Positions 9,149 to 27,510 of a DNA stretch of 64,000 nucleotides are shown one piece after another (within the stretch, counting starts at the first letter, position 1; every line of letters begins with the position of its first letter). The notes below the pieces were generated by a model. It was not told where the DNA came from, searched no databases, and saw only the letters and a list, made by a program, of their open reading frames with translations. Location: NCBI GenBank assembly GCA_965649265.1, contig CBFGKC010000004.1, positions 122,590-186,589 on the forward strand. The letters run 5' to 3'. Made by a program: the position numbers and the translations under genes. The DNA is from a candidate division WOR-3 bacterium. GTDB taxonomy: Bacteria > Hydrothermota > Tepidihabitantia > B3-TA06.

Positions 9149-9176
9149 TTGACATTCTTTGAGTTGTAAGTATATT
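9149..9176 (+). promoter_or_regulatory. sigma70 promoter of the kinase-bEBP gene (TTGACA-N16-TATATT)
   Basis: Hexamers read directly from the sequence. Confidence 0.65.
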
Positions 9177-9274
9177 GTTATCAATTAAAAAACGGAGCTA
9201 GGGATGCAAGATACTGCAAGAAAGCGTCTTGGCAGGTGTTTACTGAGGATAATGGCAGAGGGGGAGCCGGTTCC

Positions 9275-12200
9275 ATGGTAAAAAAAGGATCCGTGGATTT
9301 TCCGAGCGGTTTCGAGGTATCAAGGAAGCTTGGTGAAGGGAGCGCAAGCATTGTCTGGGCCGTAAGACGTGAAGGCACAAACGAGGAGTTAGCCTTAAAG
9401 ATCACGGCGAGGCCAGATCCGGCACGCCTGCTCGAGCGCGAGTACGCAATTCTCAGACGTCTGGACCATCCGGGTATCGTCAAGGTATTCGAATCGGGTG
9501 AGTTTAACGGCAGAGGCTTTTTTCTGATGGAATTGATAGAAGGTGAATCTTTTACCTCTTTTTTCAAACAAAAAAAGGAGAGCGTAGGTTTTATTGAGCT
9601 GTTCCTTCAGGTCTTGAGGGAATCGGCAGGGATACTCTCCGATCTTCACAAGCAGGGCGTGGTCCATATTGACGTCAAACCCTCGAATATTCTTATACGA
9701 AAAACAGGGTTTCCGCTTCTTTTGGACTTCGGTTTTGCCGAAGACTATATATTGAGCCCGACGGCAGAACCGTCGGGTACCACCCTTGACTACGCGGCTC
9801 CTGAGCTTTTTTCGGGCGGCCATGTGACGCCTGCTGCGGATATTTATTCACTCGGTGCGATGGCGTATGAAGTCTTGAAAGGGAATAAGCCCTGGATCGG
9901 TAAATCGCCGAGGGAACTCATAGCAGCAAAGCTGAGAGCCTCTCCAGGATTAGGCAAGCTCGAATTCGAGATACCTGCGGGGCTGGAGGGTTTGGTTTTG
10001 CGAATGATAAATCCGGAACCCTCACTGAGGCCATCCGCGGATGAGGTCATACTCGAGCTCGATTGGCTTTCGGGAGGTAAATCTATCGAGATCAAAAAAG
10101 CATCGGTTTTTCTGCCGAGGCTCGTTTTTGGCGGCAGGGAAGAAGAGATGGAATACGTCAGGAAACTGATCTTCGATGAAAAAAAGGTTATATTTCTTTC
10201 AGGTGAATCCGGTATCGGAAAAACAAGATTTCTGAGGGAACTTCGTTTCAAGGCAATGCTTGATGATCGCAAGGTTTTGCTCCTCGAGGGGCGCGGAGCG
10301 CATCTGTCGCTTGTGGATTACCTTTTTGTTTCACTGGGTGTAAACCGTACCGGATCCGGAACCAGCGAGACCCAATTGTCCGATAAGTGGTCCAGATACG
10401 AAAGGATTTCCCAGGAAATAGAAAACGCCGGCTTTGAAGCGTTGTATATTGATTCGCCAGTTGATTTGAACTCTGACGAGAAAGGGCTTATTGGGTACTT
10501 GGCCCGCGGTTTTGATACGAGACTGGGCTTACTCGTTACCCAGGTTCCTGAATTCTTATATCCAAATGCGACGAATTTCAAACTCGAACCTCTGAACGAA
10601 GAGAGGGTAAGAACCCTGGTTTCAAGAACTTTCAGAGGCTTGAAGGGTGAGGTCCGTCTTGCCAAAAACCTTTTTTTACTCGCCGGAGGGAATCCCAGGC
10701 GCACTAACGAACTCCTTGATATACTCTACAACGAAGGATGGCTTTCATGGGACAGGGGCTGGATATACGAACCGGTTAGTGAAGAAAGCACCATTGCCGC
10801 GCAACTCGAAGAGTGGCTTGGAGACAGGGTCGGTCGGCTTGATGGGCCTTCCAGGTTCATTCTTGATTCGCTTGCGGTCGTCGAATCGGCGCTCCCTACG
10901 GAGGTTTTATCCAGGATAATCGGCGAGGATGCGGAACTCGCAATGAAAGGTCTTGCCGAGCATGGGCTTGTCCGCTCATTCTTTTATCTTGAAAAGCCCT
11001 ACCTTGAGTTTGCCGACGACGTTACTAAACCCTACCTTCTTGGTAAACTCCACGGTGGACGCGCAAAGGAAATTTCGAAAACCCTCGCGGAGGCCGTTCA
11101 GGAATATGGCGTCAAGTACTGGGGCCAGGATCTTGACTGCTGGGAGAAGACATGCCTTGCGGATGTCGGGTTGCTTTTTTTCATGTCAGGGTCAAAAACG
11201 AAGGCCGGAACATATCTGATCAAGTCGGCCAAAGACCTGAGGCTTAACTATCACATTGAAAGAGCGCTTGAATATTTGAAAAAAACCATTGAGTGCAGCG
11301 GTGAAGCCAGGTGGAAAAAGGAGGCAATGCAGGAAATGCTCCACATTGCCTATATTACTTATAATCTGAGCGAAGCGGAAAAGATCACATCCGAATTGAT
11401 GCCTCTTCTGCACGATGACCCTGAAGCAAAGGCCGAGGCAATTTCCAGGTTAGCCGCGATATACATGAGGATGGGGCAAAACGACAGGGCCGAGCAGTAT
11501 CTGGATGAATGCGAGAGGATAGTTCCTGATCCTTCTTCGACTCTCTTGTTCAGTATGATGAATGTGCGTGGGTGGATTGCCAACAACCGCAGCAGGTATC
11601 TTGAGGCGCAAGATATCTTTCAAAGAGCTCTTGATATGGCTTCAAGTGATAAAGAGAGAAGGATAGCCCACCAGGGCCTGCTCAGAACCGTTATTTTTCT
11701 GGGGAAAAACGCGGAAGCGCTCGTTCACGCCACCAGGGCGGTCGAATTACTCGAAAAGGGCGGAGACAAGAACGATCTTTGTTCAACGCTAGTCAATATG
11801 ACCGATGTAATGCGCAATCTGGGCATGTATTCTGAAATGGAGAGCTGCATTGAGAAAGCTCTCGCGATAGCGGAGGACGTGAAGAATCCCAATCTCCTGG
11901 CTTTGACTTATGAATACAGGGCTTTCATGTATGCATTGAACAAAAAATATCGCGATGCACTGAATTACACACGGAAGGCGATAGTCTTTTCGACGAAGGT
12001 AAAGAACGAACTCAGATCTATATCCCTGAAAATAAGTGAGGCTCAGTATTTGCACGATACGGGCGAATGGTCTGAAGCAAAAAAGATATATCTTGAAACG
12101 TGGCAGGAGTTGGCAAGAAGCAAAAGTGATGCAGTTACCAGATCGAAGCCCTACTTTTTGAGAGCCTGGGGTGAATTCTTAAGAAGCAGAAGTGAATATT

Positions 12201-14311
12201 CTTCAGCTCTGAGGATTCTTGAAAAAGCGAAAAAAATTGCCGCTGAATTGAACAACGAAACTCTCTCTCAGCACATTGATATCGTGAAGTGCAGGGTTTT
12301 CATTGAGTCAGGACAACTTGATCGGGCAGAACGGATAATTGAAGAATGCGAAACGGCACTAAAGAAACAAAAAGACATCGCAGGTGAGGAGATCTTGAAT
12401 TGGTTGAAAACGGAGCTTTATCTCAGTCAAGGTAAAACTCGCGAAGCTTACCTGCTTTGCAATGAATTGTCGAGTGCGCGTGAGGGAAAGAACAGTGCTA
12501 TATCCTCTGAAATAAATATTACGAGATTGATCGGGAGAACCCTTCTCGGAGTTGGTAAGACAACTGCCGGGTTATCCAAACTGAAGGAAGCAATTGAAGC
12601 AAGTAGAGTTCAGGAAAATCCCTTGGAGTTAGGATTAAGTATCTTCTTTTACGCTGAAGAAAAACTTAAGAAGCATGGGTTTATTGAAGAGGCGATTGAA
12701 GCTTTTGACGAAGCCGAAACAATTTTCAAAAGACTTGGATTGTCCAATCTGGTACGGGACATAGAAAGATTACGTCGGGAGTTCCCCAAGCCTGAACGAA
12801 CAAACCACGAATCAAACAAGTATCTTGAGGGTTTCAAAGAACTTACATCAGTAGTCAATTGTTACCTGGGTAAGGAAAATTATATGAACGTCATCCTGGA
12901 TACCGTTTTGGACTTCACTAAAGCCAATCGAGGCATGATCTTATCATTCGAGGATGGTGTACTTCACCCACTGGCCATAAAAAAACTGGATACAGTCTCA
13001 TTCTATGACGCTGAAAACATCTCCCATACCGTTATTGAAAAGGTGAAGGAGGGTTTTGAACCGGTGTTTACTCCCGATGCAGAACATGACGAGCGTTTCA
13101 AAAATTCCGAAAGCATTAGACTGAACCAGATACGTTCTCTCATGTGCGTTCCTCTTCTGACTGGGGGGAATCTCGTTGGAACGATCTACCTTGACAGCCG
13201 GCAACCAGGATTATTCGACAGTGAAAAGATCCTCTATTTTGAGTCTTTGGGAAATCTTCTGGCTGCGACGCTTGATAAGTCTCTAGAATTCATAAGATTA
13301 AAAGAAAGACTGGCCCTTGTTAAAAGGAAGCATGACCTCGATAACTGTGGGATAGTAATCGGTAATTCACCTCAAATGAGGGAATTTAGTTCCAGAATCG
13401 AACAGGTTTCCAGGTACAATGCTAACGTTCTTCTGGAAGGAGAGACCGGTACGGGCAAGGGCGTTATCGCGAGAATGATTCACGATAAAAGTAACAGAAG
13501 AGAATATGAGTTTTCGTGCATAAACTGCGGGATACTTCCAGAGAATATTTTTGAGTCAGAGCTCTTCGGTTGTAAGAAGGGTGCGTTCACTGGAGCTATT
13601 TCGGATCGTATTGGTCTGCTTGAGTCTGCAAATGGATCCACTGTTTTTTTTGATGAGATAACTAATACATCTCTCGCCGTACAAGCCAAGCTTTTGGAGG
13701 TCATCGAGGATAAGGTGATCCGGAGACTTGGGGAAACCAAGAAGCGCAGCGTGGATTTGAGATTCATTTTCGCAACCAATCGTAATATACAGGAGGAGAT
13801 AGCCAAGGGCAGCTTTCGTGAAGATCTCTACTTCAGGCTGCGCACGTTTGCCTTTCACCTTCCTCCCTTGAGGGAACGCAGGGAGGACATTCCGCAGTTT
13901 ATCAATTTCTTTATGGATAAATACACTAAAGAATTCAACAAGGATATAGTTGATATTGAACCTGCGGCCTATGATGCCTTGATTACTTATAATTGGCCCG
14001 GTAATGTGCGCGAGCTTAAAAGCACCATAGAGAGAGCGGTTCTGCTGGCTCCCGGAAAGGTTCTTACGACCGACCTTTTTGAACGCTGTTTCTTTGAAAG
14101 GGTTTTGAATAATGAAAACGGTCGTGAAACGTACAGGCTAAAGGATGAAGATTTGGTTAATCTAGTGAAGAAAACCCTGAAGGAAACAGATGGGAACATG
14201 ACAGAGACGGCAAAACTTCTGGGAATCTCCAGGCGTCATCTTTACAGGATCATTGAACGATTTGAAATGGTTAAGGAACGAAGTAAAAGCCGCAAGTCCA
14301 AAAAACCCTGA
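9275..14311 (+). CDS. Multidomain sigma54 activator: Ser/Thr kinase - STAND-like P-loop ATPase - TPR - GAF - AAA+ bEBP - Fis HTH
   Basis: Kinase LGEG, ALK, HIDVKPSN, DFG; Walker A GESGIGKT; helical repeats; GAF IRSLMCVPL...GTIYLDS; bEBP GETGTGK, ESELFG..KGAFTGA, FFDE, FREDLYFRL, WPGNVREL; HTH AKLLGISRRHLYR. Confidence 0.93.
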   Translation: MVKKGSVDFPSGFEVSRKLGEGSASIVWAVRREGTNEELALKITARPDPARLLEREYAILRRLDHPGIVKVFESGEFNGRGFFLMELIEGESFTSFFKQKKESVGFIELFLQVLRESAGILSDLHKQGVVHIDVKPSNILIRKTGFPLLLDFGFAEDYILSPTAEPSGTTLDYAAPELFSGGHVTPAADIYSLGAMAYEVLKGNKPWIGKSPRELIAAKLRASPGLGKLEFEIPAGLEGLVLRMINPEPSLRPSADEVILELDWLSGGKSIEIKKASVFLPRLVFGGREEEMEYVRKLIFDEKKVIFLSGESGIGKTRFLRELRFKAMLDDRKVLLLEGRGAHLSLVDYLFVSLGVNRTGSGTSETQLSDKWSRYERISQEIENAGFEALYIDSPVDLNSDEKGLIGYLARGFDTRLGLLVTQVPEFLYPNATNFKLEPLNEERVRTLVSRTFRGLKGEVRLAKNLFLLAGGNPRRTNELLDILYNEGWLSWDRGWIYEPVSEESTIAAQLEEWLGDRVGRLDGPSRFILDSLAVVESALPTEVLSRIIGEDAELAMKGLAEHGLVRSFFYLEKPYLEFADDVTKPYLLGKLHGGRAKEISKTLAEAVQEYGVKYWGQDLDCWEKTCLADVGLLFFMSGSKTKAGTYLIKSAKDLRLNYHIERALEYLKKTIECSGEARWKKEAMQEMLHIAYITYNLSEAEKITSELMPLLHDDPEAKAEAISRLAAIYMRMGQNDRAEQYLDECERIVPDPSSTLLFSMMNVRGWIANNRSRYLEAQDIFQRALDMASSDKERRIAHQGLLRTVIFLGKNAEALVHATRAVELLEKGGDKNDLCSTLVNMTDVMRNLGMYSEMESCIEKALAIAEDVKNPNLLALTYEYRAFMYALNKKYRDALNYTRKAIVFSTKVKNELRSISLKISEAQYLHDTGEWSEAKKIYLETWQELARSKSDAVTRSKPYFLRAWGEFLRSRSEYSSALRILEKAKKIAAELNNETLSQHIDIVKCRVFIESGQLDRAERIIEECETALKKQKDIAGEEILNWLKTELYLSQGKTREAYLLCNELSSAREGKNSAISSEINITRLIGRTLLGVGKTTAGLSKLKEAIEASRVQENPLELGLSIFFYAEEKLKKHGFIEEAIEAFDEAETIFKRLGLSNLVRDIERLRREFPKPERTNHESNKYLEGFKELTSVVNCYLGKENYMNVILDTVLDFTKANRGMILSFEDGVLHPLAIKKLDTVSFYDAENISHTVIEKVKEGFEPVFTPDAEHDERFKNSESIRLNQIRSLMCVPLLTGGNLVGTIYLDSRQPGLFDSEKILYFESLGNLLAATLDKSLEFIRLKERLALVKRKHDLDNCGIVIGNSPQMREFSSRIEQVSRYNANVLLEGETGTGKGVIARMIHDKSNRREYEFSCINCGILPENIFESELFGCKKGAFTGAISDRIGLLESANGSTVFFDEITNTSLAVQAKLLEVIEDKVIRRLGETKKRSVDLRFIFATNRNIQEEIAKGSFREDLYFRLRTFAFHLPPLRERREDIPQFINFFMDKYTKEFNKDIVDIEPAAYDALITYNWPGNVRELKSTIERAVLLAPGKVLTTDLFERCFFERVLNNENGRETYRLKDEDLVNLVKKTLKETDGNMTETAKLLGISRRHLYRIIERFEMVKERSKSRKSKKP

Positions 14312-14341
14312 AGGTTTACAAGGTTATTTCTAATCGAGACT

Positions 14342-14358
14342 TGTGTCAAATTGGCACA
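14342..14358. promoter_or_regulatory. Putative bEBP enhancer site 1
   Basis: Palindrome TGTGTCA-AAT-TGGCACA (one mismatch), about 180 bp upstream of the -24/-12 box. Confidence 0.65.
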
Positions 14359-14424
14359 GCCTTTGTATCCTAACAATCTTCTTTAAAACAACTTGTGCGT
14401 TTGTTCCGACAAAACAGATTGCGT

Positions 14425-14441
14425 TGTGCCAAAAAGTCCCA
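14425..14441. promoter_or_regulatory. Putative bEBP enhancer site 2
   Basis: TGTGCCA-AAA-AGTCCCA, a degenerate copy of site 1. Confidence 0.5.
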
Positions 14442-14495
14442 ATGGGAATCGCACACTAGGGATTCTTTTTTTTAGGCTCAGCTTCAAGTCTTTTT

Positions 14496-14508
14496 TTTAA
14501 ACAACTTA
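14496..14508. promoter_or_regulatory. Possible IHF site between enhancer and promoter
   Basis: TTTAAACAACTTA after a T-tract; partial match to WATCAANNNNTTR; similar TTAAAACAACTTG at 14383-14395. Confidence 0.35.
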
Positions 14509-14533
14509 CGAGAAGCCCTCGGCTCCGAATGGC

Positions 14534-14549
14534 TGGCACGTATATTGCT
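14534..14549 (+). promoter_or_regulatory. sigma54 -24/-12 promoter
   Basis: TGGCACG-TATA-TTGCT is an exact match to TGGCACG-N4-TTGCW. Confidence 0.88.
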
Positions 14550-14796
14550 CTTAATTATAGCGAGCGGTTGAAGAGAAAGGTCGGACGGTTGTCGGAGTTA
14601 AGAAATTAGATGGAGGTCCCGGCAACAATTCTTGCATCCCGATAGAGGGCAGGTATTGGGCGGTGTATAGGAGTAAGGATGGGAGGGGGGAAAATTGGGT
14701 TATGTTGAAAGTTAGTTTGGGGCTTATACAGGTTATAGAGAAGGTGTTTCCTGTAATGAGGGTGAAAACAACCAATCTCAAATAAGGAGAATAATC

Positions 14797-15264
14797 ATGA
14801 AGATAAACAAGCTCGCTTTTGTCCTGATCGTTATGGTCAGCTTGGTCGGTGCAAGCTCCGCGTTTGCTATAACTGGAGGCGACTGCTATGGAGGCGGTAC
14901 CGGAACCATCACCAACGGCACTTACTCCTTTTGCCCGTGGGGGTCCTGGACTGGCTTCCACAGCACCGGGTCTATATCAGGGCTATTATATGGTCAGACA
15001 GGCTTCTCCGGGACTGTTGATGAAGGAGAATTCAATATAGATTATGCTTCGGGTACCTGGAGTCTATCGTATCTCGGTTATTCTTTTGCAGGCACCTTCG
15101 CGATGGATTTTAGCAACATGTATTTCGTCGGCGGCGAAGGTTGGTACATGAGAGGCATTACCGGAGAATGGGCGCTGACATCCGCCCCTCAAGGATGGTC
15201 TACAGGTCCGACAACGCGGACGATTAACGGTTACGAGTATTTGTGGGAAGATGACGACGAGTGA
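14797..15264 (+). CDS. Secreted Gly/Trp-rich beta protein (divergent WxG family member)
   Basis: AAGGAG SD; Sec signal ending LVGASSAFA; GSWTG, SGTW, AGTF, TGEW strands; acidic tail EDDDE. Confidence 0.82.
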   Translation: MKINKLAFVLIVMVSLVGASSAFAITGGDCYGGGTGTITNGTYSFCPWGSWTGFHSTGSISGLLYGQTGFSGTVDEGEFNIDYASGTWSLSYLGYSFAGTFAMDFSNMYFVGGEGWYMRGITGEWALTSAPQGWSTGPTTRTINGYEYLWEDDDE

Positions 15265-15312
15265 TGAGAGTTCATAAGCTCATTAGCTTTTGCCTCTGAT
15301 CATTTTAAGTAC

Positions 15313-15336
15313 AGCAGGGGGGCACTCCCCCCTGCT
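15313..15336 (+). terminator. Intergenic GC hairpin (weak terminator or stabilising stem)
   Basis: AGCAGGGGGG-CACT-CCCCCCTGCT with a poor U-tract. Confidence 0.55.
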
Positions 15337-15454
15337 TGGATTTGTTTGAGGGACACAGAGAAGTCAAAGTGTCTTTTCTGGCGATTTAACAGGTCGAAGA
15401 AGGGTGTTATCTTCAGAGGGTGAAAACAGCATAATCTCTGGAAAGGAGAAATCA

Positions 15455-15916
15455 ATGAAGGAAAACAAACTCACATCAATCGCCGCTTTTGTAGTGGTAC
15501 TGAGTGGTTTACTTGTGGCAACGCCTATTATGGCGGGACCAGTTTACCAGGAATACTGGTCAGGTACAGGTGATCCCTATACATATCTTGGTTTCCAGCA
15601 GATGGGTTATATTAACCCATTCCACGAGTGGAACATAAATATTGATGTTGAAGCAGAAGGCATTCCCTACAATATCGCCGCATCCTGGAGCGATCAGTAC
15701 GGCCACACGGGCACTATCCAAGGCCACATCAGCTACCTAAGTGATGGTGCGGGCTATGGTGTATGGGATTGCGACCAGCATCCTACATCGTTTGGTACTT
15801 GGACTGGTTCTTTTGGTAGAGGAGGGGTTGGAAGTAGTTGTTCCGGAACCTTCACTTACTATTACCAAGGCGGATATCAAACCGGCGGTTGGTTCTCAGG
15901 AACCAGAGATCAATAA
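15455..15916 (+). CDS. Secreted Gly/Trp-rich beta protein (WxG family)
   Basis: AAGGAG SD before MKENK; signal peptide; YWSGT, GTIQG, YGVW, FGTWTGSF, SGTF, GWFSG strands. Confidence 0.85.
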   Translation: MKENKLTSIAAFVVVLSGLLVATPIMAGPVYQEYWSGTGDPYTYLGFQQMGYINPFHEWNINIDVEAEGIPYNIAASWSDQYGHTGTIQGHISYLSDGAGYGVWDCDQHPTSFGTWTGSFGRGGVGSSCSGTFTYYYQGGYQTGGWFSGTRDQ

Positions 15917-15936
15917 AGTCTCACGCAAGCGTCATT

Positions 15937-15966
15937 ACAGGGCGGGCGTAAGCCCGCCCTGTTTCT
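15937..15966 (+). terminator. Rho-independent terminator
   Basis: ACAGGGCGGGC-GTAA-GCCCGCCCTGT followed by TTCT. Confidence 0.7.
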
Positions 15967-16066
15967 CAATATCTTAGAATTCAGGATAATATCCAGAGAA
16001 TTCTGAGGTTTAAAAGACGGTTATGAGTGGCTTAAATGAAATTAAACTAGTTTATAGTTAATTGAC

Positions 16067-16094
16067 TTGACAATTCGTTCGGTTTACCTATAAT
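16067..16094 (+). promoter_or_regulatory. sigma70 promoter TTGACA-N16-TATAAT
   Basis: Perfect hexamers. Confidence 0.8.
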
Positions 16095-16100
16095 CAACGC

Positions 16101-16217
16101 ATGGACAATCTAGAAACAAAAAAGAAGGGCGTTCGTTGCTCAATACAACGACAAAAAAACCGGATACAATTATACTACATATCCTCTGCAATTATTAACA
16201 TAGGGGGGACCCCATGA
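16101..16217 (+). CDS. Possible leaderless 38-aa upstream ORF coupled to the SDR gene
   Basis: ATG 6 nt after the -10 box; MDNLETKKKGVRCSIQRQKNRIQLYYISSAIINIGGTP*; stop overlaps the SDR start (ATGA). Confidence 0.35.
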   Translation: MDNLETKKKGVRCSIQRQKNRIQLYYISSAIINIGGTP

Positions 16218-17998
16218 AGGTTCTTTTGACAGGTGCCTTCGGTAACATAGGTTCGAGCACTCTTGAAGAGCTCTTAAGGCAGGGACACAGGGTCACCTGC
16301 TTTGACCTCCCAACGAAGGCTAATATTAAAAAAGCGCGAAGGCTTGGAAACAAGATTGACATGATTTGGGGTGACGTTCGAAACCGCAAGGATGTGGCTG
16401 ATGCAATCCTTGGACAGGATGCGGTAATTCACCTCGCGGCTATAATACCTCCACGCAGTGAGTTAGATCCTGAATATGCAGAACAGGTTAATGTTACAGG
16501 AACTCGTAACGTCGTTGAGGCGTTAAAGTCCACCTCCAATCCGGCACGTCTTGTTTTCTCTTCCTCCGTTTCAGTATTTGGTCGCAAGTTCTCGACACCT
16601 CCTCCTCGTACCGTAGATGAGTCTATTGAACCTTCCGACAACTACTCCAGGCACAAGATACTCTGCGAGGAGATGATACGTTCTTCTGGTTTGCGCTGGG
16701 CTATCCTGCGCTTTCCGGCTGTCCCGCCGCTCGTGAGTCTTCAGATGGATCCTATAATGTTTGATATAGCGCTTCATACGAGAATCGAGTTCTTGCATAC
16801 CCGTGACGCAGGTCTGGCGCTGGCAAATGCAGTTTCGTCCGACGAGGTTTTGGGAAAGATTCTTCTCATGGGCGGAGGAAGCCGCTGCCAGTTCGAGTAC
16901 TGTGACTACGTCGGCAAGACCCTTGATGCGGCAGGTATAGGCAGGCTCCCGTCGGAGGCGTTCGGCAGCGAACCGTTTTACACAGACTGGGTAGACTCTT
17001 CTGAGAGCGAAAGTCTTCTGTTCTACCAGCGCCACACCTACACGGATTACCTGCGTGAGTTCAGTGGCAATCTCGGATTCAAGCGCTTTATTATCCCATT
17101 TTTTAGACCGTTCATAAGGAGAGCGTTACTGCGGTGCTCGCCCTATATGCCGCCCGGTGCCGCAAGCGGGCGGAAGAGTTCCGAGTACTGGAGGGATAAG
17201 GTCGTTATCGTAACCGGTGCGTCGAGCGGCATCGGCGAGGCGTGTGCGCGCAGGCTTGCCCATGAGGGGCTCAGGGTTGCATTGGTTGCAAGACGCAAGG
17301 AGAGACTCGATGAAATCGCTAAAGCCATATACCTTCAGGGAGGCGAGGCTATGGCTGTATCTGCCGATTTGACCGTCGAGGATGAAAGAATCCGTGTCAT
17401 TGAAGAGGTACGCGAGAACTGGGGCAGGATTGATGTCCTTGTAAATAATGCCGGATTCGCATGGTACGGCTACGGTGCCGATATGCCCTGGGATGTCGCG
17501 TCCAAGATGATTGACCTCAACGTCAAAGCGCTTGTGCACATGACGCTTCTTGTCATCAAGAGGATGCGTTCTTACAACTCCGGACACGTGATCAATGTCT
17601 CTTCCATAGCCGGAAGCTTTCCGCAGCAAGGTACAATGCTCTACAGCGCTACAAAATCTTTTGTAGACAGCTTCTCAACTGTCCTCTACCGGGAAACGCG
17701 CGGTACAAACGTGCATGCTAGTTGTATTAAGCCAGGAGCCGTCTCCACTGAACTTTTCGATAACGCAAGACAGGATCCCACTTCTCTGCCCATTCCTGCA
17801 GAAGGGATGGCCGTGAGTGTCGAGAGGGTCGTTAACCGTATTTGGTCTCTCATGAACAGGCCTCGCAGAAGGGTCTTTGTTCCTGCACTCCTGTGGATTA
17901 TTCCATGGGTTGAACAGTTGTTCGGATGGTTCATCGACAAGCTTGGAGCACTGCTTCTCAAACACAGCGCCAATACTGCAAAGGTCCAGGTGAAGTAA
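16214..17998 (+). CDS. Fusion of an extended SDR (epimerase/dehydratase type) and a classical SDR
   Basis: N-domain TGAFGNIG, HLAA, YSRHK; C-domain TGASSGIG, NNAG, YSATK. Confidence 0.9.
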   Translation: MKVLLTGAFGNIGSSTLEELLRQGHRVTCFDLPTKANIKKARRLGNKIDMIWGDVRNRKDVADAILGQDAVIHLAAIIPPRSELDPEYAEQVNVTGTRNVVEALKSTSNPARLVFSSSVSVFGRKFSTPPPRTVDESIEPSDNYSRHKILCEEMIRSSGLRWAILRFPAVPPLVSLQMDPIMFDIALHTRIEFLHTRDAGLALANAVSSDEVLGKILLMGGGSRCQFEYCDYVGKTLDAAGIGRLPSEAFGSEPFYTDWVDSSESESLLFYQRHTYTDYLREFSGNLGFKRFIIPFFRPFIRRALLRCSPYMPPGAASGRKSSEYWRDKVVIVTGASSGIGEACARRLAHEGLRVALVARRKERLDEIAKAIYLQGGEAMAVSADLTVEDERIRVIEEVRENWGRIDVLVNNAGFAWYGYGADMPWDVASKMIDLNVKALVHMTLLVIKRMRSYNSGHVINVSSIAGSFPQQGTMLYSATKSFVDSFSTVLYRETRGTNVHASCIKPGAVSTELFDNARQDPTSLPIPAEGMAVSVERVVNRIWSLMNRPRRRVFVPALLWIIPWVEQLFGWFIDKLGALLLKHSANTAKVQVK

Positions 17999-23906: not shown

Positions 23907-24356
23907 TTATTCTTCGTCGACCGGCAGAAGCTGTTTGCCTTTCCAGAAGCCGTGGTGTATTGCGTCCGGATCGTTGAATGTCTTCCATTCGCCTTTGCCG
24001 ACGCCCGGATAAGACGATACCAGATCAAAGACGCCGAGCCAGTTGCCGATCTCGACGCCGAATTTATCGTAGATGATGCCGTTATCCGTCTTGTAGATGC
24101 CGCCTCCGTCAGTATTGAGTACCGCGTATAGCGTCCCGTAATCGGCATCGCTAATGTCGGATTGCCATTTGCCCTCGAAGTAAGGGACAGTGCCTGCGGG
24201 TCCATTGTCGAAGATGGTGCCTTTCCAGGTACCCTGGATAGCTATGCCTGAAGGGTCGCCCCAGTAGGTACCTTTCCAGTCAGTATTTTCTGCGGAAAGC
24301 GAGCTTGCTCCAAGAACAACGAGAAGCATCGTTAGTGTGAGGAGTGTCTTTTTCAT
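23907..24356 (-). CDS. Secreted WxG-repeat protein, array member 7
   Basis: Signal LGASSLSA; NTDWKGT, GTWKGTI, FEGKW, GTLYA, IGNWLG.F, GKGEW, GFWKG. Confidence 0.9.
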   Translation of the reverse strand: MKKTLLTLTMLLVVLGASSLSAENTDWKGTYWGDPSGIAIQGTWKGTIFDNGPAGTVPYFEGKWQSDISDADYGTLYAVLNTDGGGIYKTDNGIIYDKFGVEIGNWLGVFDLVSSYPGVGKGEWKTFNDPDAIHHGFWKGKQLLPVDEE

Positions 24357-24469
24357 CAATATCCTCCAGTGAGGTTTAATGTTTCTTAACCTCTCCTTGA
24401 AAACACGCTGTATCCTTCATTTGTCATCAATCGCATGACGGCAAGGGATTCCTTTCCGATAGTTCCGTC

Positions 24470-24874
24470 TCAGGGCACCTGCTCGCCTTTCCAGCTTCCG
24501 ATATAGGGTGCCCAGAGCCATGTCCAGTCACCTTTACCATAACCTGGATCGACCGAAACTGTGAAGGTACCGCCCCAGTTTCCGACTACGGAACCATCTT
24601 CGTCGTAGATAACGCCTTTGACTATCTTGTAGTTACCGAGTCCGTCTGACTTAAGGGATGCATTCATAGTTCCCCATTTCGCTTCATCCATCGATGTCCA
24701 TTTGCCTTCAAAGTGAGGGGCTGTCGGTCCGGTTGGGTCATCATATATGGTGCCCTCCCATGTGCCTTGATCCATGCAGAAGTATGTACCTGCCCAGTTC
24801 GTGTTGGCCGCCACAAGCGAACCTGCGCCCAGCATGAGCATGAGCGCTGCAACGGTAAGGAGTATTTTTTTCAT
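24470..24874 (-). CDS. Secreted WxG-repeat protein, array member 6
   Basis: Signal LGAGSLVAA; NTNWAGT, GTWEGTI, HFEGKW, VGNWGG.F, GKGDW, GSWKG. Confidence 0.9.
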   Translation of the reverse strand: MKKILLTVAALMLMLGAGSLVAANTNWAGTYFCMDQGTWEGTIYDDPTGPTAPHFEGKWTSMDEAKWGTMNASLKSDGLGNYKIVKGVIYDEDGSVVGNWGGTFTVSVDPGYGKGDWTWLWAPYIGSWKGEQVP

Positions 24875-24973
24875 CGTATCCTCCTAGGATATTTTTTTGA
24901 TTTTTCGCCCTACCAGGATACACGCTGATTTATTGTTCTGCTTTTATATAAAGCGAGCTAAAGCGTGGTTTTT

Positions 24974-25387
24974 TTATTCCTCGTCGTTCAAAGCTAACTG
25001 GCCTTCCCATTTACCCTTGAACGGGGCGTCTACCCATGTCCAGGTGCCTTCGCCGTGACCGGGCTTGACCATCAATGTAAAGGAGCCGTACCAGTAGCCG
25101 ACGATTAATCCTTTTTCATTATAGAGGGTTCCCTTTATTATCTCATAGTTGCCAAGTCCGTCGGCCTTAAGGGTCGCGTACATCGTTCCTTGCTTGTTTT
25201 CGTCTACTGATGCCCATTTGCCTGAAAAGTAAGGTTTAGGTCCGATGGGACTGTCGTATATAGTTCCTTTCCATATGCCTTGGTCAACGCAAGAGTACTT
25301 GCCTTTCCAGTTTGTGTTGGCTGCAGAGAGTGAGCTTGCGCCAAGAACGAGCGCGAGCGCTAATACGGTCAGCAGTAATTTTTTCAT
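24974..25387 (-). CDS. Secreted WxG-repeat protein, array member 5
   Basis: Start MKKLL at 25387; LGASSLSAANTNWKG, GIWKGTI, FSGKW, GEGTW, GKWEG. Confidence 0.9.
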   Translation of the reverse strand: MKKLLLTVLALALVLGASSLSAANTNWKGKYSCVDQGIWKGTIYDSPIGPKPYFSGKWASVDENKQGTMYATLKADGLGNYEIIKGTLYNEKGLIVGYWYGSFTLMVKPGHGEGTWTWVDAPFKGKWEGQLALNDEE

Positions 25388-25456
25388 TTCTTCTCCTACA
25401 CATGGTTTTGGTTTTTCCTCCTCCTTTAAACACCAATTATTATAGCTATCCGGCAA

Positions 25457-25873
25457 TCAGGGTGATTTTCCTGTCCATTTACCTGACGCAGAACCGTCGG
25501 CAAGCTGCCACGTGCCTTCTGCACGGCTGTCCGGAGTGCCGTCGTAATCCAAGTCGAAGTAACCTTCCCAGTAGCCTATGTTGGTTCCCTGGTCGTCATA
25601 GATTACACCATACGAAACCAAGTAGTATCCGGGTTGAGGAGTGCTGTACACCCCGAAAAGGGTTCCGTGTTCCGTAATGTCGGCGAAATACCAGTTGCCA
25701 GAAAAGTGAGGAACCTGGTCCTCATCAGGATTGTCGTGGATAGTTCCGTTCCAGATACCCGAAAGATCCCCATCGAAAGTTCCTTCCCAGTACGAATCAT
25801 CTGCGGCAAGCCTGTTTACGCCTAAGATACTCAAGACTATGACCAGCGTAAAAGTGAGGAAGGTTTTTTTCAC
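25457..25873 (-). CDS. Secreted WxG-repeat protein, array member 4
   Basis: GTG start with AAGGAGG SD; YWEGTF, GIWNGTI, HFSGNW, IGYWEGYF, AEGTW, GKWTG. Confidence 0.9.
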   Translation of the reverse strand: MKKTFLTFTLVIVLSILGVNRLAADDSYWEGTFDGDLSGIWNGTIHDNPDEDQVPHFSGNWYFADITEHGTLFGVYSTPQPGYYLVSYGVIYDDQGTNIGYWEGYFDLDYDGTPDSRAEGTWQLADGSASGKWTGKSP

Positions 25874-25990
25874 TGTTTCCTCCTTATTTTTTTTATTTTT
25901 TCGCCCTGCCAGGATACACGCTGATTTGGAACCCGGCCGCTCGTGGATTCAACGGCCGGGTCATTCATGGATTTGATTTGTTTTCTTACA

Positions 25991-26398
25991 TCAGGGCAGG
26001 ATTCGCTGGCCGTACCATTCTCCCGTATGGTCAATTTCGAGCTCTGCCCATTTGCCTTCGGCCCGACCGGGCTTGTAGTTCACATCGAAGTATCCCTCCC
26101 ACGATGCCACTACGTTACCCTTGTGATCGTAGGCGACTCCTTTGATTATTTTGTAGATGCCGTGTCCTTCATATGTTAAGTCAGCCAAGAGTTTACCGTA
26201 TTCCGAGTCGTCGCCTAATGACCATTTACCTTCAAAGTGGGGGGCCGCCGGGCCAAGCGGGTCATCGTATAGTGTGCCGGCCCATATACCCTCATGGTCG
26301 CCCCAGAACTTGCCTTCCCAATCCGTATTCGCCGCAACAAGAGAGCTTGCGCCAAGGGCAACGAGGAGCGTTGCAAAGATGAATAACTTTTTTTTCAT
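25991..26398 (-). CDS. Secreted WxG-repeat protein, array member 3
   Basis: LGASSLVAANTDWEG, GIWAGTL, HFEGKW, WEGYF, AEGKW, GEWYG. Confidence 0.9.
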   Translation of the reverse strand: MKKKLFIFATLLVALGASSLVAANTDWEGKFWGDHEGIWAGTLYDDPLGPAAPHFEGKWSLGDDSEYGKLLADLTYEGHGIYKIIKGVAYDHKGNVVASWEGYFDVNYKPGRAEGKWAELEIDHTGEWYGQRILP

Positions 26399-26518
26399 CG
26401 TATCCTCCATACTTGTTTTGTTTATTGTCGCCCTGCCTCATACACGCTGGTTTTGAGGCCGGCCATTTCCGAATGGCTACGGCCGGGTTAGATTCGGATT
26501 AACCTTCTGAAGTTAATA

Positions 26519-26917
26519 TCAAGGCAGTATTCGGTTGCCTTGCCATTTGCCGCATCTATCGACGTCAACCAACGTCCAGCTACCTTCGGCATAGCCTGGT
26601 TTTATGTTCTGATCAAAGTAGCCGTCCCAGACGCCAATTTTGTTGCCATCCGAGTCGTAGATGGTTCCTGTTACGATCTTGAAGATGCCGTGACCGGCGT
26701 ATTCCAGAACCGCATATAGTGTTCCTTCTTCTCCAGTCTCTTCACAAGTCCAACCGCCTTTGAAGATGGGTGGATCCTGTTCGTTGTCGTACAGTGTGCC
26801 TTTCCAGGTACCCGCATTGTCGCCCCAGAATTTTCCATGCCAGTCGGTAGCTGCAGAAAGGGCACTTGCTCCGAGAAGGATTGAGAGTGCAGTCAAAATG
26901 AGAAATGTTTTTTTCAT
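26519..26917 (-). CDS. Secreted WxG-repeat protein, array member 2
   Basis: LGASALSAATDWHG, GTWKGTL, FKGGW, IGVWDGYF, AEGSW, GKWQG. Confidence 0.9.
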   Translation of the reverse strand: MKKTFLILTALSILLGASALSAATDWHGKFWGDNAGTWKGTLYDNEQDPPIFKGGWTCEETGEEGTLYAVLEYAGHGIFKIVTGTIYDSDGNKIGVWDGYFDQNIKPGYAEGSWTLVDVDRCGKWQGNRILP

Positions 26918-26971
26918 GTCTCCTCCTTGTTTTTTCAATTTGTCGCCGCTCCCAGAATACACATGGAAGGA

Positions 26972-27001
26972 CGGGCGTCATCAAAGCTTTGATGACGCCC
27001 G
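26972..27001. repeat. Perfect 30-bp palindrome between array members 1 and 2
   Basis: CGGGCGTCATCAAAG/CTTTGATGACGCCCG. Confidence 0.85.
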
Positions 27002-27129
27002 CCCAGAATAGGTTTAGTAGCCGCTTAAGCCCATTACGCTTTCAAATACAATCTTACTCGTCTTCAAAATGGCAAAGCGACTTCTCAATTTGTTCTTATT
27101 GTCTTTGTTCATGCTCCGGAATGGGCTTT

Positions 27130-27510
27130 TTAAATGCTCCATCCAGACCATTTGCCTGTTTCGCCCGTTTCGAGCGTCCAGGTGCCTTTAGCTAATTCAT
27201 CGTTAACGGCAGGGAAAGTTCCCTCCCATTTGCCGATGACGTTGTATTCTTTGTCAAGGATAGGCCCGGTGACTACATAGTAGTTACCTACGAGTTCGAT
27301 GGTCTCGCCTCTCATATAGCCGTGGGGAGGGGGATCAGTAGGCGATGAGACTTCCCAGGTTCCCCAGAACGGCGGATCGACGTAAGGGGAAAGAGTCCCG
27401 GCCCATGTGCCACTGATGTCCCCGTCGAACGTTCCGGACCAGTTTGAAGCTACAAGACCGCTTGCTCCGATTGTTAGAAGGGCTGCAATAATGAGGGCTT
27501 TTTTAAGCAT
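27130..27510 (-). CDS. Secreted WxG-repeat protein, array member 1
   Basis: IGASGLVASNWSGTF, GTWAGTL, FWGTW, IGKWEGTF, AKGTW, GKWSG. Confidence 0.9.
   Translation of the reverse strand: MLKKALIIAALLTIGASGLVASNWSGTFDGDISGTWAGTLSPYVDPPFWGTWEVSSPTDPPPHGYMRGETIELVGNYYVVTGPILDKEYNVIGKWEGTFPAVNDELAKGTWTLETGETGKWSGWSI

Follow-up and report, generated by a model that had tools for sequence, protein, structure and literature searches.

The locus described here lies in a 64,000-nucleotide (nt) stretch of DNA from a candidate division WOR-3 bacterium (assembly GCA_965649265.1, contig CBFGKC010000004.1, positions 122,590 to 186,589), which we call the window. A gene for a giant sigma-54 activator is followed on the same strand by a spacer of 485 nt, counted from the activator's stop to the start of the next gene, and by two small genes, sA and sB, for putatively secreted proteins (table 1). 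The spacer holds candidate enhancer sites, a -24/-12 promoter and a predicted G/A-rich leader. The rpoN gene is found on the same contig, approximately 3.4 kb past the end of the window (DNA-binding domain, E 3.5e-44). Taken together, these features point to a circuit in which the activator would drive a promoter placed just past its own gene.

The activator joins four putative sensory or signalling modules (kinase, STAND, TPR and GAF) to a sigma-54 output. An in-frame GTG at 9236 offers an alternative start that would give 1691 amino acids (aa). The kinase domain shows the motifs LALK (with the beta-3 Lys), HIDVKPSN (with the catalytic Asp and Asn), DFG and APE and is of the non-RD type (HID). 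The STAND module is matched in Pfam by AAA_16 (residues 300-358, 37.5 bits, cut-off 32.6) and nSTAND3 (28.6 bits, cut-off 27.2), and the tetratricopeptide repeat (TPR) region by TPR_MalT (residues 777-1071, 46.6 bits, cut-off 45) and TPR_12 (55.2 bits, cut-off 30.1). A P-loop NTPase module and a C-terminal repeat sensor, the hallmarks of STAND/TPR proteins, are both present, and ligand-induced multimerisation would be expected. In the C-terminal part, Sigma54_activat (PF00158, residues 1374-1539, E 9.7e-63) is followed by AAA_lid_14 and a helix-turn-helix (HTH). The GAFTGA loop is intact in the translation (KKGAFTGAI), as is the arginine-finger region. The protein has the sequence features of a bacterial enhancer-binding protein, and open-complex formation is predicted. 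A preliminary description of this DNA, made from the letters of the window, had proposed an activator of about 1680 aa with an intact GAFTGA; the length, the Pfam domains and the translated loop all agree with it. The nearest solved structure of the C-terminus is the NtrC-family regulator 4l4u (E 4.8e-72, residues 1342-1676) and those of the N-terminus are PknA/PknB. Among NCBIfam models, NorR scores 315.6 bits (cut-off 476) and NifA 301.1 bits (cut-off 528.85). Since every NCBIfam match falls under its family cut-off, the activator is none of the named regulators.

Table 1. Features of the activator locus, in order of their position in the window (strand '.', no direction assigned).
Feature	Position	Strand	Details
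Sigma-70-like promoter for the activator gene	9149-9176	+	TTGACA-16-TATATT, 11/12 consensus positions
Giant sigma-54 activator, open reading frame (ORF)	9275-14311	+	1678 aa from ATG 9275; database copy likewise 1678 aa
Hanks-type Ser/Thr kinase domain	9311-10051	+	PF00069, residues 26-272, E 5.2e-38
STAND NTPase module	10133-10915 (end approximate)	+	Walker A GESGIGKT; AAA_16, nSTAND3
TPR sensor region	11435-12448	+	TPR_12, TPR_MalT (Pfam)
GAF domain	12890-13273	+	PF01590, residues 1219-1346, E 1.5e-10
Sigma-54 interaction AAA+ domain with lid	13355-14101	+	Walker A GETGTGKG, GAFTGA, Walker B FFDE
Fis-type HTH	14162-14248	+	HTH_8 PF02954, residues 1643-1671, 33.9 bits (cut-off 22)
Candidate enhancer site 1, TGTGTCAAATTGGCACA	14342-14358	.	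TGTGTCA-AAT-TGGCACA, core TGTCAAATTGGCA
Candidate enhancer site 2 (weak), TGTGCCAAAAAGTCCCA	14425-14441	.	3 mismatches; position fits relatives' second site
Two T8 tracts, possible bend	14466-14473, 14491-14498	+	25 nt apart, between enhancer and promoter
Sigma-54 promoter, TGGCACGTATATTGCT	14534-14549	+	TGGCAC-N5-TTGCT, 223 nt past activator stop
Predicted G/A-rich leader, 236 nt	14560-14796	+	From expected start to sA start codon
AGGGTGAAAA motif	14759-14768	+	38 nt before sA start; common to sB, C7 gene and three array genes
sA, secreted Gly/Trp-rich protein, 155 aa	14797-15264	+	Putative signal peptide
Terminator-like hairpin between sA and sB	15313-15336	+	10 pairs, 8 G-C, then T-rich stretch
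Sigma-70-like element with extended -10 before sB	15386-15413	+	TTAACA-16-TATCTT, TG; 9/12
AGGGTGAAAA motif, second copy	15417-15426	+	38 nt before sB start
sB, secreted 8-stranded beta-barrel protein (model), 153 aa	15455-15916	+	Putative signal peptide
Terminator-like hairpin after sB	15944-15959	+	Hairpin search

The layout of homologous loci supports the circuit. Homologs of the activator are numerous (696 proteins at E ≤ 1e-30 among 8000 scored candidates). Their records bear only generic names ('sigma 54-interacting transcriptional regulator', 'Nif-specific regulatory protein'), and the organisms given in some of them belong to several candidate phyla. The activator's N-terminal 1200 residues were searched against 41 genomes of the class. 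Many matches were to the kinase only, and most families of the class also have ORFs of approximately 1600-1770 aa whose match extends well past it. Twenty loci were fetched and, with the window and two paralogs from the same genome (C7 and C1), made a set of 23; one of these (L038) was dropped for having 100 nt of downstream DNA, leaving 22. A strict -24/-12 box lies at +100 to +400 on the same strand in 16 of the 22 and on the opposite strand in none, compared with a background of 0.018 per 300 nt in the rest of the fetched DNA. A looser TGG-initial pattern is found on the same strand in 20/22 and again never on the opposite strand, and the two loci that it misses are caught by the strict pattern. 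Combining both, every one of the 22 loci has a box, +144 to +331 nt after the activator stop, and the pattern covers at least eight families. This arrangement is strong support for an activator positioned to act on the promoter that follows its gene.

The protein motifs are also well kept across the 22 homologs. The kinase Lys, HxD and APE are present in all 22 and DFG in 21, the STAND P-loop GxxGxGK[ST] in 21 (L030 has GIGRT) and a Walker-B-like hhhhD in 22. The sigma-54 domain's GETGTGKG and FFDE are kept in 22/22, with small variants. The GAFTGA loop itself varies in family f1, where orthologs (L025-L031, L033) replace it by GAYTGA, GSYTGA, GAYSGA or GVYTGA; the loop of L025 reads GAYTSA. 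The window's genome holds several activators, three of them giant (window, C7 and C1). A split counterpart is also present at C3:210700-213800 (L004). Here the gene of a GAF-AAA+-HTH activator (516 aa) runs into the start of a separate gene for a Ser/Thr kinase (560 aa), and an exact sigma-54 box comes after the kinase gene.

Between the activator stop and the box, most loci carry palindromes that are specific to the locus and repeated within it. For example, GTGTGCAGATTTTGCACAC occurs twice in L040, TGTAACATTTATGTTACA twice in L039 and TGCGACAATTTGTCGCA twice in L044, while L028 and L029 have CTGTCACAATATTGTGACAG with GTGTCGCAAATATGTGACAC. Palindromes of any kind are in modest excess in the 200 nt after the stop (69 compared with 37.9 in shuffles). 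The argument is taken not from this generic count but from the recurrence of identical palindromes within one locus. The recognition helices of the activators differ as well (ISRRHLYR in the window protein, ISTRSLWR in C7). Differing palindromes with differing helices are as expected of enhancers co-evolving with the HTH of their own activator. Phylogenetic footprinting of this kind supports the cis-regulatory part of the preliminary description.

At the window locus, the first palindrome starts 31 nt past the activator stop, its arms agree at 6 of 7 positions and it is the sole genome-wide match to TGTGYCA-N3-TGRCACA. The enhancer core, TGNCAA-N1-2-TTGNCA, has 11 copies genome-wide; three of them are placed 100-190 nt before the window promoter and a second sigma-54 promoter, on C7, with a common leader, which counts in favour of the circuit. 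The second palindrome is at chance level on sequence alone: with three mismatches allowed, 5.08 matches are expected in the window and 8 are found, a number equalled or exceeded in 17 of 100 shuffles. The preliminary description had listed two TGTGYCA palindromes, and of these the one at 14342 stands and the one at 14425 is not supported. It had also listed IHF-like tracts, which were not recovered, as the E. coli-type IHF consensus WATCAANNNNTTR, allowing up to one mismatch, has no match in 14312-14534 and the spacer offers only the two T8 tracts; two genes of the HU/IHF family are present in the genome. The exact sigma-54 box reported at 14534-14549 is there, as the only exact -24/-12 match in the window and one of 17 in the genome (2.74 Mb). 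Two other exact boxes are intergenic, at C2:202430 (-) and C3:199874 (+), with no ORF preceded by a ribosome-binding site within 450 nt, and possibly mark additional sigma-54-dependent RNAs.

Downstream of the box, the extent of the transcription unit is clear at one end and less so in the middle. A terminator-like hairpin follows sB, in agreement with the terminator claimed earlier. The unit would end there because the next gene has its own perfect sigma-70 promoter (16067-16094). This neighbour (16067-17998, promoter 12/12 to the sigma-70 consensus) encodes a 594-aa fusion of two short-chain dehydrogenase/epimerase-type domains. The upstream region of sB contains no sigma-54 box, and the last 20 nt or so before its start are 95% identical to those of an sB-like gene at C7, which has a sigma-54 box of its own. 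Both sA and sB are also preceded by an element, GTGTWT-N6-12-AGGGYGAAAA, that lies 34-39 nt before the starts of six genes: sA, sB, the C7 gene and three genes of a seven-gene array elsewhere in the window (23907-27510, - strand), which has a 12/12 sigma-70 promoter and a terminator. In the window, copies of the element lie within 24360-27000 (-), 14740-14770 (+) and 15400-15430 (+). In the whole genome the motif is followed by a ribosome-binding site and an ORF of 60 aa or more at 14 places, of which these genes account for 6. One possible reading of the element is an extended -10 promoter together with the first transcribed bases, and another is a common signal in the 5' untranslated region (5'-UTR). 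The preliminary description had read the locus as a sensor-to-effector circuit with its own pair of targets. The placement of activator and promoter bears out the first part. As for the pair, sA lies downstream of the box with no terminator in between, and the inclusion of sB is unsure given the hairpin and the sigma-70-like element before it. Neither that hairpin nor the leader had been mentioned in the earlier account.

The two proteins have N-termini that look like signal peptides when judged by eye. In their mature form they contain 19-20% Gly, approximately 5% Trp and 8-10% Tyr, against 8.0, 1.4 and 3.5% in the genome's long ORFs. Only two close homologs of sA were found, tandem genes on one small metagenome contig with 76% and 70% identity, and sB has orthologs at 54% and 44% identity; both sA and sB are real genes because homologs exist. 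A word-based search with sB returned its own record only. A profile of sB and three paralogs, run against 1.84 billion representatives, matched 18 proteins at E ≤ 0.001, the two orthologs among them. Public collections of genome and metagenome contigs yielded no locus that would give the genomic context of the sB orthologs, and the ESM Atlas has no entry for sA, sB or P0005.

The structural model of sB (predicted local distance difference test, pLDDT, 76.4) is an eight-stranded up-and-down barrel. In a wide VIA-align search it resembled the N-lobe barrel of LbpB (3uaq_B, Z 10.6, root-mean-square deviation (rmsd) 3.0 over 106 residues), HphA (8gm3_B, Z 10.4, rmsd 2.9, 100 residues) and hemophilin (7re4_A, Z 10.0, rmsd 3.0, 100 residues), with TbpB also among the best matches. 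Avidins followed at Z 8.0-8.6 (e.g. the streptavidin variant 6qsy_A, Z 8.6, rmsd 3.3, 100 residues). The shared trait is the eight-stranded barrel, which in TbpB/LbpB lobes, hemophilin/HphA and avidins belongs to small secreted or surface binding proteins. Unlike these, sB shows no sequence relation (8-18% identity in the structural alignments) and has neither a lipobox nor a handle domain. Neither Pfam nor NCBIfam has a match to sB, and a profile search of PDB gave none at E up to 10. The model of sA is all-beta and weak (pLDDT 61.6); its matches are again these generic barrels, with Z no higher than 8.5, a level that chance arrangements also reach.

Both proteins had been described as secreted Gly/Trp beta proteins resembling the array. 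Composition, signal-like N-termini and all-beta models agree with this, and the likeness to the array is indirect only. It runs through a third family of approximately 22 tandem genes at C13:76600-88100 (L046), encoding secreted Trp/Gly-rich proteins of 136-171 aa with the motifs W.G.G.G ... PWQ.W.G ... G.W.D..G..G.F.G ... C.G.W. Comparisons were run in hhalign with signal peptides removed. The C13 family matches the sB family with a probability of 96.3% (E 1.9e-9) and the array with 92.6% (E 4.5e-7), and in both cases none of 20 column shuffles came near. Direct homology between sB and the array (18%) or between sA and the array (6%, no signal) was rejected. For sA against the C13 family the probability is 45% (E 2.2e-4), and the only other genomic matches of the sA profile are three C13-type genes (E 4e-6 to 5e-5). 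These profiles suggest a real but remote likeness to the array for sB, by way of the C13 family; for sA it is no more than suggested. The earlier claim that sA and sB form an inducible branch of the array family is one of the weaker ones, with the remote, transitive homology of sB, a weak signal for sA and the common 5'-UTR motif behind it. Of 132 genomes in the class, 14 are matched by a profile of the superfamily, and they belong without exception to families f1, f2, f3 and f5. Two further sB-like genes lie at C13:21960-23072 (L045). In other genera (L067 G013:C1, L068 G015:C6, L069 G009:C23, L070, L071), each sB-like gene is followed by one for a protein of 844-903 aa, and two such partners that were tested carry a type-IX secretion C-terminal sorting domain. 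The G015 sB-like gene has an exact sigma-54 box 73 nt upstream, and two sB-like gene pairs of G013 adjoin a giant activator.

Most relatives appear to drive a different product. In 14 of the 20 relatives' loci (L027-L037, L039, L041, L043), the first reading frame past the box encodes a small proline-rich product. Some loci encode a precursor of 47-95 aa whose N-terminus resembles a signal peptide and whose tail reads, for instance, GGPPVPPPIPEPTLPPPPID; families f7 and f10 have a bare peptide of 16-20 aa instead (L035 and L036; L043, MFGVFVPPSPLPVPPK). In family f1 the peptide gene is followed by a conserved protein of approximately 97-102 aa without a Pfam match. The C1 paralog (L003, a 1720-aa ORF) is the one canonical module of the window's genome, with a 71-aa peptide and a 97-aa gene. 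No such peptide is present at five relatives' loci (L025, L026, L040, L042, L044), at the window or at C7, and the window's 14312-14796 holds no proline-rich or other small peptide ORF. A peptide gene beside the receptor is therefore a trait of the wider family (14 relatives' loci and C1) rather than of the window locus. The preliminary description had expected homologous activators to be accompanied by both a sigma-54 box and small secreted WxG genes, and had treated the lack of such neighbours as evidence against its circuit. The boxes do recur (22/22) and the WxG neighbours, among the relatives' loci fetched, do not, so that this evidence goes halfway: 14 of the 20 relatives' loci have the proline-rich peptide instead.

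How the window came to differ is suggested by a tree of the 22 full-length proteins (FastTree, midpoint root, no bootstrap, with C1 left out owing to an assembly gap). The window protein forms a clade of 100% local support with C7, G002:C25 and G002:C63, nested among the peptide-type loci of family f1. The C7 paralog (L002) has 43% identity to the window protein, is also 1691 aa long and has its box at +194, followed by the sB-like gene. Targets within the clade are sA/sB, the sB-like gene, two uncharacterised secreted proteins (489 and 483 aa) and a propeller with LVIVD repeats. Because this clade is nested among peptide-type loci, the most fitting reading of the window circuit is a retargeted paralog of a module that spans the class and would drive a small proline-rich peptide. 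The sequences support its placement as a derived member of a widespread and uncharacterised family of self-adjacent sigma-54 circuits, whose usual predicted product is that peptide.

TPR sensors often bind extended peptides. For this reason, the proline-rich product was tested as a ligand by modelling a complex between the TPR segment of the G004 activator (610 aa, 10-sequence alignment) and residues 31-70 of its neighbour peptide (5-sequence alignment). Three runs scored 0.16, 0.73 and 0.73 (median 0.73), against 0.00 for the best of three controls. In calibration, 58 of 80 solved complexes attained the score mark, as did 2 of 110 mismatched pairs; these counts are only a rough guide for this model because custom alignments were used. 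The partner has a pLDDT of 41 or more, 42% or more of the contacts recur between runs and peptide residues 45-70 run along the inner face of successive TPR repeats. As a prediction, the model supports possible binding of the proline-rich tail in the TPR groove of the G004 activator, i.e. in a relative's protein and not the window's. In every homolog, conservation is lower at the modelled contacts than over the remaining residues, and it is lowest in the window protein (12% at the contacts, 25% elsewhere). Such low conservation would fit either a diverging specificity surface or an unspecific model, and neither supports nor refutes a changed ligand.

We consider it likely that the window holds a self-adjacent sigma-54 circuit, in which a retargeted paralog acts on its own downstream promoter to produce the leader and sA, and perhaps sB. 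The activator, a cytoplasmic protein that would integrate signals, would be read from its own sigma-70-type promoter. Its Fis-type HTH would most likely bind the palindrome just past the stop, and perhaps the weak second site. Once an inducing signal triggers the N-terminal block (Hanks kinase, STAND NTPase, TPR and GAF), the AAA+ ring would open the -24/-12 promoter. The transcript would start near 14560 and run through the 236-nt leader into sA; sB would be reached by read-through of the hairpin or expressed from its own weak sigma-70-type element. Both products would be exported as small beta-barrels of a lineage-restricted Trp/Gly-rich superfamily that also occurs in the genome's long sigma-70-driven arrays. 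Secreted targets would fit the argument, made in the title of PMC3162934, that sigma-54 controls the cell exterior.

Several points weigh against this account. The binomial probability of the conserved layout, approximately 1e-23, overstates its support because the genomes are related and not independent, and two pairs of loci are near-identical. Firing of the promoter, and service by the adjacent activator, are predictions from the comparison among loci; a look-up of sequencing runs covering 13800-16100 listed none. The window has a single convincing palindrome where most relatives have two. If the element before sA and sB is a sigma-70-type extended -10 promoter, both genes could be expressed without sigma-54, and the terminator-like hairpin at 15313-15336 may place sB outside the sigma-54 unit altogether. 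An enhancer core and the first 17 transcribed bases are common to the window promoter and a second sigma-54 promoter at C7, so the C7 paralog could act on the window promoter, or the window activator on C7. Finally, among the loci fetched, Trp/Gly targets of giant activators were seen only in this genome.

The alternative that survives best concerns the RNA. Here the main product of the sigma-54 promoter would be a G/A-rich regulatory RNA, with sA and sB made mostly from their own sigma-70-type elements. The window leader is 62% purine and 12% C. Its promoter and the second exact box on C7 (C7:162136) have 37 of 45 bases in common, including 17 identical transcribed bases (14561-14577), and both RNAs continue with a small hairpin and a G/A-rich stretch. 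The C7 RNA (C7_p2; L002:8137-8735, from C7:162136 onward) starts from a box past the sB-like gene, extends for approximately 570 nt with tandem repeats of GGAGGAGGGC and TGGTGTGTTACGGG, contains no + strand ORF of at least 60 aa and ends in a hairpin with a T-run. It is a candidate sigma-54-dependent non-coding RNA. At G002:C25_p1, the same box TGGCACGAGAATTGCT precedes a G/A-rich RNA of approximately 200 nt, likewise frame-less and closed by a terminator. A predicted sigma-54-dependent, purine-rich RNA is a recurrent product of the window/C7/G002 subclade, and the element found at a fixed distance before sA, sB and three array genes would provide the two proteins with promoters of their own. 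On the other hand, no terminator separates leader and sA, so that in the window the purine-rich RNA would be fused to sA and any transcript from the promoter would run into that gene. The leader folds no better than its shuffles (z-score +0.58) and no Rfam family was found in the window or in L002 and L025, and a structured leader or riboswitch was rejected on these grounds. A CsrA sponge was rejected too: the 96%-complete genome has no CsrA (PF02599) and the leader contains 8 GGA against 8.1 expected. A further candidate role, antisense to the C1 proline-peptide mRNA, was dropped when 15 of 40 shuffles reached the duplex energy, for both leaders. We regard a regulatory RNA as the main product as somewhat unlikely; it is in any case compatible with the self-adjacent circuit.

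A second alternative is that the promoter at 14534 is mainly served by another activator (e.g. the C7 paralog) and that its adjacency to the window activator is historical rather than functional. The genome has several activators to choose from, including the three giants. The window promoter also has its enhancer core and first transcribed bases in common with the second promoter of the C7 locus. Against this, a same-strand box follows the activator at a narrow distance in all 22 loci while the palindromes differ by locus, which argues that each activator acts on its own downstream site, and the recognition helices of the window and C7 proteins are different. We judge service by another activator to be improbable, and the self-adjacent circuit is the reading we retain. 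It is harder still to believe that the kinase-STAND-TPR block is a conflict or anti-phage sensor with the secreted proteins as unrelated passengers: defence systems often contain STAND NTPases with sensor repeats and the kinase weakly matches the defence-system kinase MAD6 in NCBIfam (131 bits), but that match is far under its cut-off (460), the activator ends in a complete sigma-54 module with HTH, a sigma-54 promoter follows it in every locus examined and a Pfam scan of the activator found no nuclease or other killing domain.

A broader proposal reaches beyond the window and is put forward tentatively, as a possibility that we would not yet bet on. The giant activators may form a widespread and undescribed class of peptide-sensing, auto-inducing regulators, in which the tail of the proline-rich peptide returns to the TPR groove in a manner similar to RRNPP systems but wired to sigma-54. 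The window paralog would have lost its own peptide and would couple sensing (perhaps of the C1 peptide) to a G/A-rich RNA and secreted ligand-binding barrels. Peptide sensing is the part most worth testing, and the proline-rich tail provides a concrete ligand hypothesis. The fixed order of gene, enhancer, promoter and small exported product is also a handy experimental handle, as it requires a short piece of DNA and one protein. In addition, the targets add a superfamily without a relative in Pfam, NCBIfam or PDB, present in dozens of copies in the 2.7-Mb genome of an uncultured lineage, with a predicted barrel fold known elsewhere from haemophores and vitamin binders.

Sigma-54 activators are a textbook class and, to our knowledge, no studied member has a kinase-STAND-TPR sensor block. 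A full-text literature search found no description of the fused kinase-STAND-TPR-sigma-54 activator architecture, and a search that combined sigma-54 with the lineage name returned nothing. The two halves, GAF-AAA+-HTH activators and kinase-STAND-TPR proteins, are each well described. The window activator resembles regulators of the NifA/NorR/FhlA type and NtrC1 in its GAF domain, its AAA+ domain with GAFTGA and its Fis-type HTH, and in having candidate enhancer palindromes 100-200 nt upstream of a -24/-12 promoter. It differs from them in approximately 1200 extra N-terminal residues (kinase, STAND and TPR) and in the position of the putative enhancer, immediately 3' of the regulator's own gene.

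The N-terminal half is closer to MalT and PknK, in which an NTPase oligomerisation module precedes a TPR-type sensor; PknK also starts with a Hanks kinase. PMC4381067 treats MalT and PknK as one STAND subfamily and counts TPR among the sensor repeats. MalT ends in a LuxR-type HTH and PknK acts by its kinase alone, whereas the output of the window protein is a second ATPase, the sigma-54 AAA+ domain with its HTH. The relatives' loci (14/20) and C1 offer a third comparison, with the RRNPP systems. RRNPP regulators carry out peptide signalling through a TPR receptor with an adjacent small peptide gene. Likewise, these loci have a small peptide gene beside, and predicted to be controlled by, the gene of a cytoplasmic TPR regulator, and in the G004 pair the proline-rich tail is modelled in the TPR groove. 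The likeness proposed is one of layout: the output is a sigma-54 AAA+ domain, the hosts are not Firmicutes and the window locus, where secreted barrels are the predicted targets, is without the peptide.

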